From the IMG/VR virus record IMGVR_UViG_3300029562_000126, positions 1 to 19,552 of that record: 19,552 nucleotides of DNA; one strand, written 5' to 3'. Numbering within the stretch: the stretch's first letter is position 1; the number at the start of each line of letters is the position of its first letter. This DNA is from a virus (taxonomy: Duplodnaviria; Heunggongvirae; Uroviricota; Caudoviricetes). Positions 8,843 through 16,852 of the stretch are shown here, one piece after another. Both the position numbers and the translations under genes were made by a program. Under the pieces are notes generated by a model. That model made no database searches. It was not told the DNA's origin and was given only the letters and a program-made list of their open reading frames with translations.

Positions 8843-9076
8843 TTAGGCGGCAGAATTACTCGCGTTAAACAATGGTGCGAGGTCGGGACGAATATCTGCT
8901 GGTTTAATCTTTCCACCAGTGGCTGAGACAATTTTCATTACATAGCGGGCATCAATTCCGCCACCGTGTAGCCAACGCCAAACAGTGGGTTGGGCTACAC
9001 CGCATAGATCTGCCAGTCGTTTTTGACTACCTGTAATACTGATTGCGAGTTGAATGGTCTGATTTGTCATCATCAA
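8843..9076 (-). CDS. Cro-like HTH DNA-binding protein, divergent from the repressor
   Basis: 77-aa ORF with an HTH-like segment (QKRLADLCGVAQPTVWRWLHGG). Divergently arranged from the cI-like gene across a ~100-bp operator region. Confidence 0.7.
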   Translation of the reverse strand: MMMTNQTIQLAISITGSQKRLADLCGVAQPTVWRWLHGGGIDARYVMKIVSATGGKIKPADIRPDLAPLFNASNSAA

Positions 9077-9180
9077 TTCCTATTGGTATTGCAACGAATA
9101 GATAATAGCAATGCGTATTAAACCAAGCAATAGCAAAACGTGTTTTGACCATCAATACGCAAGCGTATAAATTAAAACTT
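9077..9180. promoter_or_regulatory. OR-like divergent promoter/operator region with repeated (A)TAGCAA(T) motifs; candidate pRM-like promoter (TTGACC ... TATAAA) directly upstream of the repressor ATG
   Basis: Sequence ...tattggtattgcaacgaatagataatagcaatgcgtattaaaccaagcaatagcaaaacgtgttttgaccatcaatacgcaagcgtataaattaaaacttATG. Repeated AGCAAT/ATTGCA half-site-like elements; -35/-10-like hexamers a few nt before the ATG suggest a near-leaderless repressor transcript. Confidence 0.5.
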
Positions 9181-9873
9181 ATGAAAAAAGAAACTCTTGC
9201 TGATCGCTTAAACCTAGCGATGGAACAATCTGGAATGTCTCAAGGCGCTCTTGCAAAGGCGTCTGGCGTAGCTCAACCCACAATCTGGAGACTGACAAGC
9301 GGCAACGCGCGCGGCTCAACAAAAATTGTTGAAATAGCTAATGCATTGGGTGTTCGAACAGAGTGGCTTTCATCAGGCATAGGCCCGATGAGAAATGACG
9401 GTCAACAATCAGGAAAGCCTGCTGTCAACCATTCCAAATACTTCAAGATTGACGTTCTTGATATAGAAGTCAGTGCTGGGCCGGGTGTCATCAACCGTGA
9501 GTTTGTAGAAGTCCTACGCTCGGTTGAGTACTCGTTTGACGATGCTCGTCACATGTTCGATGGCAGGAAGGCAGAAAATATCCGCATCATTAACGTACGC
9601 GGTGACAGCATGTCAGGAACGATCGAACCAGGTGATCTGCTGTTCGTTGATATCACTGTTAAATCTTTCGACGGTGATGGTATCTATGCGTTTCTGTACG
9701 ACGACACTGCCCATGTAAAGCGCCTGCAAATGATGAAGGATAAGCTGCTGGTTATCTCTGATAACAAGAGCTACTCACCGTGGGATCCGATCGAGAAAGA
9801 CGAGATGAACCGAGTGTTCATCTTTGGGAAAGTTATTGGGAGTATGCCTCAGACATATAGGAAGCATGGTTAA
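9145..9873 (+). CDS. CI-like prophage repressor (N-terminal HTH, C-terminal S24 LexA-type autopeptidase)
   Basis: Track ORF uses a TTG start; likely true start is the ATG at ~9181 (MKKETLADRL...). HTH (SQGALAKASGVAQPTIWRL) and S24 motif (GDSM ... K) are present. Confidence 0.85.
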   Translation: MTINTQAYKLKLMKKETLADRLNLAMEQSGMSQGALAKASGVAQPTIWRLTSGNARGSTKIVEIANALGVRTEWLSSGIGPMRNDGQQSGKPAVNHSKYFKIDVLDIEVSAGPGVINREFVEVLRSVEYSFDDARHMFDGRKAENIRIINVRGDSMSGTIEPGDLLFVDITVKSFDGDGIYAFLYDDTAHVKRLQMMKDKLLVISDNKSYSPWDPIEKDEMNRVFIFGKVIGSMPQTYRKHG

Positions 9874-9995
9874 AGTGAGGCTAAAAAACAGTTACAGCAA
9901 TAGGCCTGTTGTTTTTCTTTAAACACGCAGTGTTAAACCGCTCTTTGAGATGCGGAGTAATGAGATGGAAGACTTGAATCACATAAGGGTTAGTG

Positions 9996-10745
9996 ATGGA
10001 GTGCGTAGCGAGCAGCAATAGTGCAATACCTAATGTCGTTGAGGTAATACGTCGCATCAATGAAGGTTCCACTCAGCCATTTCTTTGCAAATGTGATGAT
10101 GGGCAGTTGTATGTTTTGAAGTCAAAACCATCAATGCCCCCGAAAAATCTCTTAGCTGAGTTCATTTCGGCGTGTTTGGCTAATGATATCGGCCTTCCTT
10201 TACCTGACTTTAAAATCGTATTTGTGCCAGAGGAACTTATAGAGTACTCACCTGATCTGCAGCAACAAATTTGTACAGGATATGCCTTTGCTTCATTGTT
10301 CATTGACGGTGCAATAGCGTTAACGTTTACGCAGTCAAGAAACGAAACGATCATCCCAGTCGAACAGCAAAAATTAATCTATGTTTTTGATAAATGGATA
10401 TTAAATGCAGACAGAACGCTTACTGACAAAGGTGGAAACGTTAACATCCTTTATGACATCAGTAACGATAAGTATTATCTGATTGACCATAATCTCTCAT
10501 TTGATCAGAATGCTGGACCTGAAGATTTTTCTGTGCACGTGTACGGCCCTGGTAACCGCAAATGGCAATATGATTTAGTGGATCGCGTAGAGTACCGCCA
10601 GAGGGTCGTTAACAGTTTACACAAGCTTCCTGCTATCCTTGACGAAATTCCAGAAGAGTGGATAGTAGATGAGGAGTTTTTACCTTTTGTCTGCACTACG
10701 CTAGACAAAGGTGATTGTGATGAATTTTGGAGCGCAATAGAATGA
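9996..10745 (+). CDS. Small HipA-like putative Ser/Thr protein kinase (HipA_C-like core only)
   Basis: 249-aa ORF (ATG 3 nt inside the track start). Kinase-like motifs LYVLKSK (candidate ATP-binding Lys), FDKWILNADRTLTDKGGN and YYLIDHNLSFD (D-H-N catalytic-loop-like). Lower GC than the phage core. Family call rests on motif recognition only. Confidence 0.55.
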   Translation: MECVASSNSAIPNVVEVIRRINEGSTQPFLCKCDDGQLYVLKSKPSMPPKNLLAEFISACLANDIGLPLPDFKIVFVPEELIEYSPDLQQQICTGYAFASLFIDGAIALTFTQSRNETIIPVEQQKLIYVFDKWILNADRTLTDKGGNVNILYDISNDKYYLIDHNLSFDQNAGPEDFSVHVYGPGNRKWQYDLVDRVEYRQRVVNSLHKLPAILDEIPEEWIVDEEFLPFVCTTLDKGDCDEFWSAIE

Positions 10746-11569
10746 CAACTCCATGCCTATATAGCATCGTTCGCTATGCGCCTTATGCGGAGACTGAAGA
10801 GTTCGCAAACATAGGCGTACTTCTGTGCGCGCCAAAAGAAAATTACTTTGATTTCCAGCTCACAAAGCGAAATGACTCTCGTGTAAAGAATTTTTTCCAT
10901 GATGATTGTATTTTCCCTGTAGCAAAAGACTCAATACAAAGAGAACTACAGTTCGCAAAAATGCATGCGACCCAGATTGTTGGACATCAACAACTTGCAC
11001 AATTCTTCAGATATTTTACAAACAAAAAAGAATCAATTTTTCAGTTCAGTTCTACGAGAGTGATTCTCAGCGAAAACCCAAAAGAAGAGCTGGCCCGCAT
11101 TTACAATAAATATGTAAACCACTCTGACTACACAAAAGAGCGCCGTGAAGATGTTCTAGCCAGAGAGCTAAAACGAAGTATCGATAGAATAGATGGATTG
11201 AAGAACGTCTTCAAACAAGCAACCATTGATGGGTATTTCGCAAAGTTCTCAATGCCATTGGTCGCCAAGAAGCATGACAGGATCCAATGTGCCATCAAAC
11301 CTCTGGCATTCACTCAAGCTGAACCAGGAAAAATGATGGAGCATAGTGATACTTGGGTGATGAGAATAACTCGAGCAGCAGAAGAAAACCTGCTTTCACT
11401 TGATGACATTTTATTCACAATTGAAACTCCTGAATCACCAAACTCAGGCCAAAGCAAAGTTATTGACATCATAAAGAGAACTATGGATGCTAAGAAAATA
11501 AATCATATACCTGCATCCAACCACAAAGAAACTATTGATTTTGCAAAAAAAATACTTCCCCAAGTTTAA
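10742..11569 (+). CDS. DUF3037-like protein with C-terminal extension
   Basis: ATG overlaps the kinase stop (ATGA), indicating translational coupling. N-terminus YSIVRYAPYAETEEFANIGVLLC matches the DUF3037 signature as recalled (Y.V.R..P....EEF.N.GV.L). AT-rich. Track ORF 10727..11569 begins at an upstream TTG. Confidence 0.55.
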   Translation: MTTPCLYSIVRYAPYAETEEFANIGVLLCAPKENYFDFQLTKRNDSRVKNFFHDDCIFPVAKDSIQRELQFAKMHATQIVGHQQLAQFFRYFTNKKESIFQFSSTRVILSENPKEELARIYNKYVNHSDYTKERREDVLARELKRSIDRIDGLKNVFKQATIDGYFAKFSMPLVAKKHDRIQCAIKPLAFTQAEPGKMMEHSDTWVMRITRAAEENLLSLDDILFTIETPESPNSGQSKVIDIIKRTMDAKKINHIPASNHKETIDFAKKILPQV

Positions 11570-11603
11570 AATTTATTTTTGTATGTGATATTCCTTATTA
11601 ATA

Positions 11604-11631
11604 ACCCGGCCACCGTGCCGGGTTTTCTTTT
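11604..11631 (+). terminator. Rho-independent terminator ending the cI / kinase / DUF3037 transcription unit (tIMM-like position)
   Basis: CCCGGC-CACCGT-GCCGGG hairpin followed by TTTTCTTTT, about 35 nt after the DUF3037 gene stop. Confidence 0.7.
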
Positions 11632-11771
11632 GCCTCCCCTCATCACACAAACCGCTCAAAAAACCACCACAACCCCGCTTCAGTTATCGCTATGCGATGC
11701 AAGTCACAAAATTAATTCTTTTTGCTATCAAACATTTAATATCAAAACACATCTAACGATAGCAATAAGTA

Positions 11772-11800
11772 TTGATATCACCAATAGCAATAGCTATTAT
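11772..11800 (+). promoter_or_regulatory. pL/OL-like promoter: TTGATA, 17-bp spacer, TATTAT, with operator-like CAATAGCAATAGC in the spacer
   Basis: Near-consensus sigma70 hexamers with 17-bp spacing read directly. The spacer and upstream sequence (~11720..11795) carry the same TAGCAA(T) motif family as the OR region. Correctly oriented to drive kil-position gene, gam, bet, exo, xis and int. Confidence 0.5.
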
Positions 11801-12074
11801 CACCATATCGCAACAACACAACGATACGGCAACCACCTGATTCACCGTTGCGATGACCGCTTAGATCCGCAGCTTGATTTCAGCAGGCTCCGGGGAGTGC
11901 GAGGGGTGAAACGGACGCGTGAACGTCGGTGTGACCAGCTGAAATCAACTCAACACTTCATACCTCAGTTGCTTCAACGAGGCGACTTAGTTATGACAAC
12001 CGGCGGCCATCCACCGCCAAATACTGCGCAACCCCTTATTTGTTCAGCAGCCCAGCTTACGGGCAGGAGTTTTT

Positions 12075-12281
12075 ATGGTTCATCAACATTACGGAACGCA
12101 GACCGTTAATCGCGGTGCGGTCATGCCAGGAATGCTGGTCAAACACAAAGATGGTACCTGGACTGCATCAGCTAATTTACGCGGACGGCTTTATCTGCAT
12201 CGCGGCATCGAGCGCACTTATACCCGTGATTTGCTCGTGGAAGTTTTTCTCGACGGACGCGGTAACGGCCTGAATCACTAA
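12075..12281 (+). CDS. Hypothetical small protein in the kil/cIII position upstream of gam
   Basis: 68-aa ORF with a strong RBS (GCAGGAGT) 8 nt upstream of the ATG. No family recognised. Confidence 0.55.
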   Translation: MVHQHYGTQTVNRGAVMPGMLVKHKDGTWTASANLRGRLYLHRGIERTYTRDLLVEVFLDGRGNGLNH

Positions 12282-12357
12282 CCCCCCTTTCCTGTTTTCC
12301 TAATCAGCCTGGCATTTCGCGGGCGATATTTTCACAGCCATTTTCAGGAGTTCAGCC

Positions 12358-12654
12358 ATGAACGCTTATTACATTCAGGATCGTCTTGAGGCTCAGAGCT
12401 GGGCGCGTCACTACCAGCAGATCGCCCGTGAAGAGAAAGAGGCAGAACTGGCAAACGACATGGAAAAAGGCCTGCCCCAGCACCTGTTTGAATCGCTATG
12501 CATCGATCATTTGCAACGCCACGGGGCCAGCAAAAAAGCCATTACCCGTGCGTTTGATGACGATGTTGAGTTTCAGGAGCGCATGGCAGAACACATCCGG
12601 TACATGGTTGAAACCATTGCTCACCACCAGGTTGATATTGATTCAGAGGTATAA
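12358..12654 (+). CDS. gam: Gam (RecBCD inhibitor), short GamS-length form
   Basis: 98-aa [24 protein letters not shown]...HQVDIDSEV matches lambda Gam as recalled. CAGGAG RBS. Confidence 0.9.
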
Positions 12655-12659
12655 AACGG

Positions 12660-13445
12660 ATGAGTACAGCACTCGCAACGCTGGCAGGGAAGCTGGCTGA
12701 ACGTGTCGGCATGGATTCTGTCGACCCACAGGAACTGATCACCACTCTTCGCCAGACGGCATTTAAAGGTGATGCCAGCGATGCGCAGTTCATCGCATTG
12801 TTGATCGTCGCCAACCAGTACGGCCTTAATCCGTGGACGAAAGAAATTTACGCCTTCCCTGATAAGCAGAACGGCATCGTTCCGGTGGTGGGCGTTGATG
12901 GCTGGTCCCGCATCATCAATGAAAACCAGCAGTTTGATGGCATGGACTTTGAGCAGGACAATGAATCCTGTACATGCCGGATTTACCGCAAGGACCGTAA
13001 TCATCCGATCTGCGTTACCGAATGGATGGATGAATGCCGCCGCGAACCATTCAAAACTCGCGAAGGCAGAGAAATCACGGGGCCGTGGCAGTCGCATCCC
13101 AAACGGATGTTACGGCATAAAGCCATGATTCAGTGTGCCCGTCTGGCCTTCGGATTTGCTGGTATCTATGACAAGGATGAAGCCGAGCGCATTGTCGAAA
13201 ATACTGCATACACTGCAGAACGTCAGCCAGAACGCGACATCACTCCGGTTAACGATGAAACCATGCAGGAGATTAACACTCTGCTGATCTCCCTGGATAA
13301 AACATGGGATGACGACTTATTGCCGCTCTGTTCCCAGATATTTCGCCGCGACATTCGCGCATCGTCAGAACTGACACAGGCCGAAGCAGTGAAAGCTCTT
13401 GGATTCCTGAAACAGAAAGCCACTGAGCAGAAGGTGGCAGCATGA
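12660..13445 (+). CDS. bet: Bet (Red-beta single-strand annealing protein)
   Basis: 261-aa ORF essentially identical to lambda Bet as recalled ([66 protein letters not shown]...). Confidence 0.95.
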
Positions 13446-14122
13446 CACCGGACATTATCCTGCAGCGTACCGGGATCGACGTGAGAGCTGTCGAACAGGG
13501 GGATGATGCATGGCACAAATTACGGCTCGGCGTCATCACCGCTTCAGAAGTTCACAACGTGATAGCAAAGCCCCGATCAGGAAAGAAGTGGCCTGACATG
13601 AAAATGTCCTACTTCCACACCCTGCTGGCTGAGGTTTGCACCGGTGTGGCTCCGGAAGTTAACGCTAAAGCGCTGGCCTGGGGAAAACAGTACGAGAACG
13701 ACGCCAGAACCCTGTTTGAGTTCACTTCCGGCGTAAATGTTATTGAATCCCCGATCATCTATCGCGACGAAAGTATGCGCACCGCCTGCTCTCCCGATGG
13801 TTTATGCAGTGACGGCAATGGCCTTGAGCTGAAATGCCCGTTTACCTCCCGGGATTTCATGAAGTTCCGGCTCGGTGGTTTCGAGGCCATAAAGTCGGCT
13901 TACATGGCCCAGGTGCAGTACAGCATGTGGGTGACGCGAAAAGATGCCTGGTACTTTGCCAACTATGACCCGCGTATGAAGCGTGAAGGCCTGCATTATG
14001 TCGTGATTGAGCGGAATGAAAAGTACATGGCGAATTTTGACGAGATGGTGCCGGAGTTCATCGAAAAAATGGACGTGGCACTGGCTGAAATTGGTTTTGT
14101 ATTTGGGGAGCAATGGCGATGA
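13442..14122 (+). CDS. exo: Exo (lambda 5'-3' exonuclease, Red-alpha)
   Basis: 226-aa ORF essentially identical to lambda Exo as recalled ([65 protein letters not shown]...). ATGA overlap with bet. Confidence 0.95.
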
Positions 14123-14301
14123 AGCATCCTCACGATAATATCCGGGTAGGCGCGATCACTTTCGTCTACTCCGTTACAAAGCGAGGCTGGGTATTTCCCG
14201 GCCTTCCTGTTATCCGAAATCCCCTGAAAGCACAGCGGCTGGCTGAGGAGATAAATAATAAACGGGGGGCTGTATGCACAAAGCATCTCCTGTTGAGTTA
14301 A
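14119..14301 (+). CDS. Lambda orf60a-like small protein
   Basis: Track ORF 14113..14301; the second ATG gives 60 aa ([24 protein letters not shown]...), matching the position and recalled sequence of lambda orf60a just downstream of exo. Confidence 0.55.
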
Positions 14302-14465
14302 GAACGAGTATCGAGATGGCACATAGCCTCGCTCAAATTGGAGTCAGGTTTGTGCCAATACCAGTAGAAACAGACGAAGAATTTCATACGTTAGCCACAT
14401 CCCTTTCACAAAAGCTGGAAATGATGGTGGCGAAAGCAGAAGCAGATGAGAGAGACCAGGTATGA
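14274..14465 (+). CDS. Lambda orf63-like small protein
   Basis: 63-aa track ORF in the lambda early-left small-ORF cluster; identity recalled, not verified. Confidence 0.5.
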   Translation: MHKASPVELRTSIEMAHSLAQIGVRFVPIPVETDEEFHTLATSLSQKLEMMVAKAEADERDQV

Positions 14466-14475
14466 CAACCACTGA

Positions 14476-14757
14476 ATGCATTTTTCTGGCAGCGGGCTTC
14501 ATATTCTGTGTGCTTATGCTTGCCGACATGGGGCTTGTTCAGTGACACCTCAGCAGGAAAACGCCCTTCGCAGCATTGCCCGTCAGGCTAATTCTGAAAT
14601 CAAAAAAACCAGACAGCAGTTTCCGGATAAAAACGTCGATGACATTTGCCGTAGCGTACTGAAGAAGCACCGCGAAACGGTAACGCTGATGGGATTCACA
14701 CCGACTCATTTAAGCCTGGCAATCGGCATGTTAAACGGCGTTTTTAAGGAACGGTGA
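14476..14757 (+). CDS. Hypothetical early-left protein (start uncertain)
   Basis: 93-aa track ORF. The conserved-looking part begins at an internal GTG (VTPQQENALRSIARQANSEIKK..., ~14542). The 5' portion overlaps a short hydrophobic ORF in another frame. Confidence 0.4.
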   Translation: MHFSGSGLHILCAYACRHGACSVTPQQENALRSIARQANSEIKKTRQQFPDKNVDDICRSVLKKHRETVTLMGFTPTHLSLAIGMLNGVFKER

Positions 14758-14778
14758 ACATGAAAAGCAAAATCATCA

Positions 14779-14802
14779 GGGAGCTACAGGCTCCTTTTTT
14801 AT
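14779..14802 (+). terminator. Weak hairpin plus T-run (possible partial terminator within the early-left operon)
   Basis: GGAGC-TACAG-GCTCC followed by TTTTTTATT. Short stem, so low confidence. Confidence 0.3.
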
Positions 14803-15400: not shown

Positions 15401-15722
15401 GGCCTGTCAGTTTCTCAAGATATCCAGACCTACCGCTACCAACTGGATACGAACAGGCCGCCTACAGGCAACACGCAAAGACCCCACTAAACTAAAATCT
15501 CCTTACCTCACAACACGACAAGCCTGCATTGCGGCACTTCAGTCTCCGCTGCATACTGTCAAGGTGAGCGCGGGTGATGGCATAACAGAGGAAAGAAAAT
15601 GTCACTCTTCCGCAGAAGTGAAATATGGTACGCCAGTTTCACATTGCCGAACGGTAAAAGATTTAAACAGTCTCTTGGAACAAAGGACAAAAGGCAGGCG
15701 ACAGAGCTCCATGACAAGCTAA
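15372..15722 (+). CDS. xis: Excisionase (P22 Xis-type)
   Basis: Track ORF 15342..15722; the internal ATG ([31 protein letters not shown]...) gives 116 aa, matching P22 Xis as recalled. Overlaps the int start. Confidence 0.75.
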
Positions 15723-16762
15723 AGGCTGAAGCATGGCGGGTCAGCAAACTTGGTGAAATACCTGATATGACGTTCGAGGAAGCGTGTGTCAGGTGGCTTG
15801 AAGAGAAAGCACATAAAAAATCACTGGACGATGACAAAAGCCGGATCGGATTCTGGCTTCAACATTTCGCAGGGATGCAATTAAGAGACATTACTGAATC
15901 AAAAATTTATTCAGCAATTCAGAAAATGACGAACCGGCGTCATGAGGAAAACTGGAAACTCAGGGCAGAAGCATGCAGAAAAAAAGGGAAACCTGTTCCA
16001 GAATACACGCCAAAACCAGCGTCCGTTGCAACGAAGGCAACGCATCTTTCATTTATAAAGGCCCTGCTAAGAGCCGCAGAGCGTGAATGGAAAATGCTGG
16101 ATAAGGCACCAATTATTAAAGTGCCTCAACCAAAGAATAAACGGATCCGCTGGCTGGAGCCTCATGAAGCACAAAGGCTGATTGATGAATGTCCGGAGCC
16201 ATTAAAGTCTGTTGTTGAATTTGCACTGGCAACAGGTTTAAGACGCTCAAACATCATCAACCTTGAATGGCAACAAATAGACATGCAGCGCCGGGTGGCA
16301 TGGATAAACCCGGAAGAGAGTAAATCAAACCGCGCAATTGGCGTTGCGCTGAATGATACTGCATGTCGTGTATTGAAAAAACAAATCGGGAATCATCACC
16401 GTTGGGTATTTGTGTACAAGGAAAGCTGTACCAAACCAGACGGAACGAAAGCGCCAACAGTAAGGAAGATGCGGTATGACGCAAACACAGCCTGGAAAGC
16501 GGCGCTGAGACGGGCTGGTATTGATGATTTCAGATTTCACGACTTGAGACACACCTGGGCAAGTTGGCTGGTTCAAGCCGGAGTCCCGTTGTCAGTGTTA
16601 CAGGAAATGGGAGGCTGGGAGTCTATCGAAATGGTTCGTCGATATGCTCACCTTGCACCTAATCACCTTACCGAACACGCACGGCAAATAGACTCGATCC
16701 TGAACCCATCGGTCCCAAATTTGTCCCAGTCAAAAAATAAGGAAGGTACTAATGATGTGTAA
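15599..16762 (+). CDS. int: Tyrosine integrase, P22 Int-type (thrW-specific)
   Basis: 387-aa [44 protein letters not shown]... with C-terminal catalytic region ([15 protein letters not shown]...RYAH). Ends 14 nt before the 3' end of tRNA-Thr and is transcribed toward it. Confidence 0.93.
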
Positions 16763-16776
16763 CTTATTGATTTAAA

Positions 16777-16852
16777 TGGTGCCGATAATAGGAGTCGAAC
16801 CTACGACCTTCGCATTACGAATGCGCTGCTCTACCAACTGAGCTATATCGGC
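16777..16852 (-). tRNA. thrW: tRNA-Thr (anticodon CGU), including 3' CCA; prophage attachment target
   Basis: The reverse complement reads GCCGATATAGCTCAGTTGGTAGAGCAGCGCATTCGTAATGCGAAGGTCGTAGGTTCGACTCCTATTATCGGCACCA (76 nt, cloverleaf-compatible, anticodon loop TTCGTAA). Confidence 0.93.

Follow-up and report, generated by a model that had tools for sequence, protein, structure and literature searches.

We analyzed a 19 552-nt stretch of DNA from a virus of the class Caudoviricetes (IMG/VR record IMGVR_UViG_3300029562_000126, positions 1 to 19 552; hereafter, the window), with a focus on the interval that holds the early leftward promoter pL and the leader of the early-left operon (about positions 11625–12074). 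The prophage is a DLP12/'Bievrevirus'-type lambdoid without an N protein, and the plus strand of the window corresponds to the leftward direction of lambda. The minus strand carries the P and O replication genes (6559–8276), a YdaT-like 'cII' gene (8273–8812) and a YdaS-type cro gene (8843–9076). These are followed on the plus strand by an S24/HTH cI gene (9145–9873), genes for a HipA-like kinase and a DUF3037 protein in the rexAB slot (9993–11569), an intrinsic terminator with an 8-bp stem that includes six G–C pairs (11603–11624, then a T-run to 11633), the pL interval itself, a KilR-type kil as the first gene of the early-left operon (12075–12281), gam, bet and exo (12358–14122), and small open reading frames (ORFs), xis and int (int at 15599–16762). 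A tRNA-Thr gene lies on the minus strand at 16777–16852. The leader between pL and kil contains two structured RNAs on the plus strand, which we call element A (11850–11951) and element B (11959–12018); both are conserved, unannotated and without a match in Rfam 15.

An earlier note on this DNA had drawn attention to a long gap between the immunity-region terminator and the first early-left gene. This gap is real and amounts to ~450 bp. The terminator, a hairpin followed by the T-run, stands directly 3΄ of the stop codon of the ORF at 10727–11569 and ends the cI/HipA-like/DUF3037 transcript, and the gene that begins at 12075 was identified as kil both by PHROG 294 (E = 1e-37) and by PGAP annotation, in which it is a 207-nt coding sequence. 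This kil gene encodes 68 aa, is preceded by the ribosome-binding site AGGAG at 12065–12069, and showed a third-position excess in nucleotide diversity (0.017, 0.022 and 0.081 at codon positions 1, 2 and 3, respectively).

The same note had placed a near-consensus promoter with operator-like repeats at ~11772–11800, and both features were borne out. The promoter (TTGATA-17-TATTAT, 11772–11800, plus strand) agrees with the consensus at 10 of 12 positions and is the best sigma-70 match of the whole window. It is overlapped by two copies of the motif ATAGCAAT(N3)TATT (11759–11773 and 11784–11798) with a spacing of 25 bp. Because the same motif recurs with the same 25-bp spacing between cro and cI (9104–9146), we assign 11759–11800 as oL/pL, with the two copies as cI operator repeats. 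The leader occurs with two immunity types, which have unrelated operators and promoters, and the sequences of the two types are identical from position 11807 on (base A or G). Transcription accordingly appears to start at this position, and the leader, ~268 nt long before kil, is a module separate from immunity. Its first segment is C/A-rich (AUCGCAACAACACAACGAUACGGCAACCACC..., 11807–11849, plus strand) and had no special folding energy. Most copies of the window type keep this segment, but one variant group and a divergent group of phages, which we call L114-type after an IMG/VR contig, have another sequence in its place; therefore, it does not belong to the core RNA. A candidate hairpin in the 5΄ part (AUCGCAAC/GUUGCGAU) was rejected, as it is broken without compensation in one variant and is missing from some copies. 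The plus-strand stretch between the terminator and oL (11630–11715) is also conserved in both immunity types and contains a palindrome, ATCGCTATGCGAT, at about 11688–11700, whose two half-sites, ATCGC and GCGAT, are found again at 11807 and 11850, within the leader.

Element A lies at about +44 to +145 from the inferred start. Its structure was computed using RNAalifold on 11 distinct sequences and consists of two stem-loops, which together cover 79 nt. Stem-loop I (11858–11901) has outer CGC/GCG and CCG/CGG pairings and an inner helix P1 (11871–11876/11884–11889), and stem-loop II (11905–11936) has a GGU/ACC pairing and an inner helix P2 (11911–11916/11925–11930). Over the 20 base pairs, 99.5% of the alignment cells were paired, compared with 28–40% when the partners were slid. 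Four of the 20 pairs were changed on both sides, with two compensatory pairs each in P1 and P2 between the window type and the L114/L401 type (L401 being a further divergent homologue). For example, AGCUUG/CAGGCU of P1 becomes CACUUG/CAGGUG in the divergent group, and ACGGACG/CGUCGGU of P2 becomes ACGGGC/GCCCGU or GCGGACG/CGUUGGC; the internal G–G of P2 is G–C in L114 and U–G in L408. Long G-rich stretches of A (CGGGGAGUGCGAGGGGUG and GUGUGACCAGCUGAAA) are single-stranded and do not vary, and the P1 loop (UUUCAGC) is invariably complementary to GCUGAAA 3΄ of P2, so that a pseudoknot or another fold could arise. A long-range 11-bp helix (11874–11884/11938–11948) was compatible with the alignment and was set aside: all of its positions are invariant or wobble, and it competes with the covarying P1. 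The covariance model of A (R3) scored 120.9 bits in the window and found exactly one copy of the element in the window, one in the whole genome of 4A7 and one in each of the loci searched. The folding energy of 11807–11955 was not exceptional (z ~0); since the proven antiterminator RNA putL reached only z = –0.7, this value is not evidence against A.

The window lacks N, Nun and put. No family in Pfam or PHROGs matched any ORF of the interval, and profile, word, phmmer and tblastn searches returned no N homologue. The tblastn queries were the N proteins of lambda, P22 and phi21, together with phi80 N and HK022 Nun (L005) taken from records; neither the window nor the complete 4A7 genome gave a match, and HK022 Nun in particular had no significant tblastn match to an ORF between pL and the recombination genes. 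None of the relatives' records annotates an N gene at this locus. The leader has neither boxA nor boxB, with boxA lacking upstream of element B in window-type loci, and there is no second nut-like site or leader copy in the pR direction, and no segment of the leader has a second copy in the rest of the window. The space between cro and the YdaT-like gene, only 30 nt, leaves no room for a tR1/nutR region. The module thus absent is the one that occupies this position in lambda (N/nutL/tL1) and phi80 (N/nutL/tL1A), between oL/pL and the kil-gam-recombination genes; unlike both phages, the window has no N ORF, no boxA/boxB, no nutR equivalent and no tL1-type terminator ahead of element B.

The put family was searched for with a covariance model (R1) built from 13 putL variants. 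The positive controls scored 99 bits (HK022 putL), 96 bits (HK639 putL) and 34.5 bits (HK022 putR, on which the model had not been trained; E = 3e-7), and the best match in the window was noise, with 8.8 bits (E about 2) at a place away from the leader. The invariant put motifs AACGGCGCG, AAACCAUGCGUCGG, GGCGGGUUCAGGA and CGGCAAU are all missing from element A. At the gathering threshold, the only Rfam 15 match of the window is the tRNA-Thr, with none in 11560–12400; at E values up to 10, only chance matches appeared, mostly to the terminator hairpin, and the cIII thermoregulator family (RF01804) had no match in the window. HK022 and HK639 themselves had no Rfam matches, and hence Rfam holds no put family. 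Several other described elements were considered and rejected as counterparts of the leader: the anti-sRNAs AgvB/AsxR and the Pas small RNAs (sRNAs) are located at the pR΄ moron site or elsewhere and not at pL, lambda PreS/LPR1 is a different element, located between ral and ea10 and terminated at tL2a, and the mEp021 Gp17/nut system belongs to an unrelated phage group.

An nhmmer search with the window-type leader found a homologue of ~80% identity in the IMG/VR contig L114, and further homologues were obtained by a search with the flanks and one metagenome scan. In L114- and L401-type loci, pL is followed by a 57-nt 5΄ leader common to HK639 and phi80, then by element A, and then by TTACCAGCAGCTCTTTGCGAGGGGCTGACGG. 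Between these same two flanks HK639 carries putL, which, like putL and putR of HK022, is an antiterminator RNA (Hwang et al. 2022, PMC9378689). In an alignment of HK639, L114 and L401, the flanks were identical on both sides of the swapped segment. When the L114 leader was used as a BLAST query, its flanks matched HK639 at 95.8% on either side of the annotated 'putL-like antiterminator RNA', and its centre matched 4A7-type phages at ~82%. Among 114 sequences retrieved with the left-flank motif AGCCAGCGGCG.AG.GGAG, 98 had putL just downstream and 12 had A; of the other four, three were unrelated G+C-rich sequences and one was not inspected. As for the right flank, the fully shown copies of A in L114, L341 and L401 run into TTACCAGCAGCTCTTTGCG / TTACCAGCAGC, and those in L350 and L392 do not. 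Element A has thus been exchanged for putL as a cassette, which lends support to an RNA-based antiterminator like put, as the earlier note had suggested, but not to membership in the put family.

For 196 loci whose sequence extends 2.6 kb or more upstream of element B, a pattern-collected and biased sample, we also classified what precedes B: 101 loci had element A, 28 had putL, 23 had a boxA of the phi80 type and 44 had none of the three. No locus had two types together; in other words, A, putL and the phi80-type boxA never co-occur. As a separate observation, Enterobacter phage ENT1 (L008, about 2450–2700) has a third, unrelated insert of ~150 nt between flanks like those of putL and A, which may be another leader cassette. 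The leader itself (11800–12080) is common, being found in 2232 of 5426 complete E. coli genomes (~41%), nearly always as a single copy; the bearers include O157:H7 and uropathogenic strains. The nearest named relatives of the window are the plaque-forming Bievrevirus phages 4A7, Lambda_4C10 and Perceval together with the PhiR series, and the right arm of 4A7 is DLP12-like. Plaque-forming carriers of the leader are 4A7, Perceval, the PhiR series and Turner.

Terminators that polymerases from pL would have to pass were found in both groups. In both L114 and L401, two strong intrinsic terminators follow A before kil/gam is reached, and HK639 carries the first of the L114 pair (CCCGCTCCGGCGGGTTTTTTATCG) as well. 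None of the ORFs in that region encodes N; their products are an HNH endonuclease and proteins without a known function. Read-through is accordingly needed in these genomes. The window has a strong intrinsic terminator within its pL operon (14778–14802, or 14778–14796 in a narrower delimitation, plus strand), which consists of an 8-bp stem and TTTTTTATTATT and precedes the TraR-like gene, xis and int. Its sequence is identical to that of the terminator after lambda orf61, which we take to be tL3, and it is also present in 57 related loci. We counted this terminator inside the operon, together with the existence of plaque-forming carriers of the leader, in favor of antitermination by A.

RNA-mediated antitermination is already known as a kind of mechanism. 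To our knowledge, processive antitermination by RNA alone is known from one family, put of HK022, HK639 and their close relatives, and one structure of the complex is available. The hallmarks of put are that it suppresses terminators downstream of it without protein factors and that mutations in the β΄ zinc-binding domain, such as Y75N in rpoC, block it. The put RNAs of HK022 and HK639 were described by King and colleagues (1996, 2011). The literature that we searched, which did not cover the latter paper (King et al. 2011), contained no description of a second lambdoid antiterminator RNA family.

We propose, and give an even chance, that element A is a cis-acting antiterminator RNA that is analogous to put without belonging to its family. 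In this mechanism, transcription would start near 11807 when cI is inactivated, and A would be made within the first ~145 nt of the pL transcript. Element A would then stay with, or modify, the polymerase that made it, as put does, and render it resistant to termination independently of N. Transcription from pL could in this way pass downstream terminators without a phage protein; in the window, this would be the lambda-type terminator at 14778, and in L114-type relatives it would be the two strong terminators ahead of kil. Element A resembles put in that it is a promoter-proximal, presumably cis-acting element in the early-left leader of an N-less lambdoid, with two stem-loops of ~70–80 nt, and it resembles HK639 putL in occupying the same slot with the same flanks, upstream of the same terminators in HK639-like genomes. 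Somewhat more tentatively, at a little under even chance, A would found a second, structurally unrelated class of nascent-RNA antiterminators that is protein-free and interchangeable with putL as a genomic cassette.

Several points weigh against these proposals. The exchange of cassettes proves that A and putL are equal in position, not that they are equal in function, and the loci in which the leader types exclude each other are the biased sample mentioned above. The covariation in A comes from few independent events in two or three lineages of the 11 distinct sequences, and the structure was predicted from the same alignment that scores the covariation. Matches to R3 either reached at least 115 bits or were missing altogether, which indicates a narrow family. 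Compared with put, A has no similarity in sequence or to the R1 model, whose failure to find more than noise in the window counts here as well, and it is single-copy without a partner on the pR side: R3 found no copy in the pR operon, while HK022 has both putL and putR. Finally, no intrinsic terminator above the strength of chance matches was found on the plus strand of the window from 11807 to 14778. Since there is no strong terminator between pL and exo in window-type loci, antitermination is not obviously needed for kil-gam-bet-exo.

This last point leads to a different explanation, the main rival to our proposal and less likely than it, namely that the early-left operon needs no antitermination. 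The N or put module would be missing together with its terminator, A would serve the leader in some other way, such as transcript stability, as a Rho or pause signal, in translational control or as an sRNA sponge, and its presence at the putL slot would reflect ordinary mosaic recombination. Besides the terminator-free stretch, the single copy of A and the lack of space for tR1/nutR next to cro are in keeping with this explanation, as are the C/A-rich 5΄ leader, which is similar to rut sites, and other N-less enterobacterial prophages, in which only a short leader separates kil from pL. However, A in L114- and L401-type loci precedes unrelated genes and two strong terminators and is thus not kil-specific, an architecture that argues against the lack of any need for antitermination as a general explanation. 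Moreover, A replaces putL between identical flanks and is never found alongside put or boxA, and the operon of the window does have a strong terminator ahead of xis and int. The loss of N, which the earlier note had also offered, is possible as history and leaves the conservation and covariation of a promoter-proximal RNA unexplained.

As a side observation on such leaders, Citrobacter and Kluyvera prophages (L010, 2895–3003; L013–L016) have kil directly after pL with a leader different from that of the window. This leader forms a hairpin of ~100 nt (z = –5.7; none of 200 shuffles was as stable), and these prophages also have the motif GTTCCGCCAGCCTGGCGACAAGG in common; theirs is another N-less early-left design.

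It is improbable that A is a nut-like site, used either by a protein antiterminator encoded outside the window or by the Nus factors of the host alone, as in rrn. Its invariant G-rich single strands could bind a protein, and the right flank of HK639/L114-type leaders contains the boxA-like sequence GCUCUUUGCG. However, the leader of the window itself has no match to boxA, no ORF of the complete 4A7 genome is N-like, the only antiterminator annotated there is a Q-like protein, and there is one site per genome, compared with nutL plus nutR in N systems.

A very divergent small N, the other protein-based possibility raised in the earlier note, was examined in an arginine-rich open frame (GTG start, MKRTRERRCDQLKS..., 11906–12109, plus strand). 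The note had reported no arginine-rich motif in the long ORF at 11579–12109; this was wrong, as the frame contains SRLRGVRGVKRTRERRCDQLKS / RLRGVRGVKRTRERRCDQLKS, and the conclusion that N is absent holds because this frame proved not to be a conserved gene, not for the reason that had been given. The frame has an SD-like GGGGAG (SD, Shine–Dalgarno) 8 nt 5΄ of the GTG at 11906, and this GTG is replaced by ATG in 18 of 126 copies. Its N-terminus, MKRTRERRCDQ, resembles the arginine-rich motif of lambda N (RTRERR compared with RRRERR within TRRRERRAEK), so that one frame of the window shares an ARM-like stretch with the N modules of lambda and phi80. In the first 20 codons, common polymorphisms were mostly at third positions (diversity 0.024, 0.021 and 0.064 at positions 1, 2 and 3, respectively), and the leader showed a weak colinear resemblance to the pL-nutL-N region of lambda, whose best local alignment was not significant (z ~1.6).

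These features made plausible a functional micro-N of about 20–67 aa, or the 5΄ remnant of a lambda-like N gene, truncated by a deletion that reached from within N to the terminator preceding element B. We rejected such a peptide on the basis of the divergent homologues, in which the frame stops at codon 2 (GTG TAA, L114-type) or codon 5 (GTG AAG CGG ACG TGA, L401-type) and the RNA helices are kept by compensatory changes; element A is thus an RNA and not a peptide. Even among window-type copies the C-terminus varies: about a third of the variants end at a TAG at 11966 (20 aa), a variant with a 5-nt duplication encodes 29 aa, the window itself encodes 67 aa with a stop at 12109 inside kil, and in 4A7-type copies the frame continues into kil. 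The parts of N that bind NusA and RNA polymerase (RNAP) are absent from the frame, and the leader lacks boxA/boxB and a second nut-like site. A word search of 5.8 billion proteins with the frame returned only three singleton proteins, all from rearranged copies of the same locus, and no longer protein with the same N-terminus; an exhaustive phmmer search of 1.84 billion representatives added only low-complexity noise beyond copies of this locus. We concluded that the frame at 11906 is not a gene, and a micro-N of either kind is highly improbable.

Element B, which follows A, is a separate module and independent of the mode of antitermination. It consists of hairpin 1 (11959–11995) and hairpin 2 (12002–12018) and is the sole part of the leader with an exceptional folding energy (z = –5.7; none of 200 shuffles was as stable). 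In hairpin 1, seven pairs were changed on both sides, and 98.3% of the cells were paired, compared with 31–49% when slid; hairpin 2 (GGCGG-CCAUCCA-CCGCC) was fixed by the search pattern, and its invariance is therefore not evidence. The covariance model of B (R2) scored 87 bits in the window, found one copy per genome, and also detected the element in phi80, HK639, HK225, KO-TP1 and ENT1. In phi80, B lies directly 3΄ of N and tL1A, and in HK639, HK225, KO-TP1 and ENT1 it lies directly 3΄ of an intrinsic terminator. In the HK639 record, hairpin 2 of B is itself annotated as a terminator.

The element that phi80 and HK639 have in common is weakly shared by lambda, just 5΄ of cIII. A homologue of hairpin 1 is located there at 33482–33521 (L340, 6483–6522, minus strand; CATACC...GCTTCACTCGAGGCG...CGTTATG). 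The cIII AUG follows it after 19 nt and RF01804 after 5 nt, and as in the window it stands 3΄ of a terminator-like hairpin. In contrast, lambda has no hairpin 2 and has the ribosome-binding site of cIII at that place, and the window has no cIII. We found no description in the literature of this conserved hairpin of lambda near cIII. At its invariant base, hairpin 1 has CAUA paired to UAUG, by which the AUG at 11993 is occluded. Because this start codon is buried, B probably controls the translation or stability of what follows, and it is probably a module for translational or stability control, or a leader-ORF module, of the cIII/kil region. The AUG at 11993 opens a short and variable ORF (11993–12109; MTTGGHPPP..., with a polyproline motif), which also occurs at locus L145 (about 2530–2600) and at many IMG/VR loci. 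In many phages this ORF ends in-frame with ...EVLY* despite inserts of different length, or enters the next gene, and its product could be a small protein or a leader peptide with a regulatory role.

Many strains have no in-frame stop codon in the untranslated leader, and this explains why the same kil gene is recorded with lengths of 207, 234, 291, 378, 387 or 420 nt in public records. Some annotators accordingly give 'Kil' 96–139 aa, compared with the 68 aa of PGAP and most others, and in phages 1W and 3W kil is labelled 'membrane carboxypeptidase'. Two further loci of the window were observed in passing. The rexAB slot (9993–11569, plus strand), which is flanked by cI and the immunity terminator, holds a gene for a HipA_2-type kinase (PF20613, E = 1e-76) that overlaps the one for the DUF3037 protein, and relatives have an ASCH-domain pair, 'GevT/GevA' or a lipoprotein there instead; this slot looks like a swappable position for defence or toxin–antitoxin genes. 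A gene of 500 aa (PHROG 1847; 4509–6011, plus strand) lies between ren and ninB on the strand opposite to the pR operon, so that transcription from pR has to cross it antisense; 4A7 has emrE/qacE and a recombinase at this position.

Several recent papers have noted lambdoid phages without N and guessed at a put-like mechanism, on which a 2025 survey of lambdoid phages only speculates (e.g. PMC12315714), and the present locus makes this guess directly testable. If A is not an antiterminator, two conserved unannotated structured RNAs and the corrected 'Kil' annotations (207–420 nt) remain. If A does act as proposed, a second, unrelated RNA that performs the task of put would show the generality of the mechanism and would provide a fresh handle on the exit channel and zinc-binding region of RNA polymerase. 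It would also account for the expression of the early-left and excision genes without N in very common prophages of E. coli.

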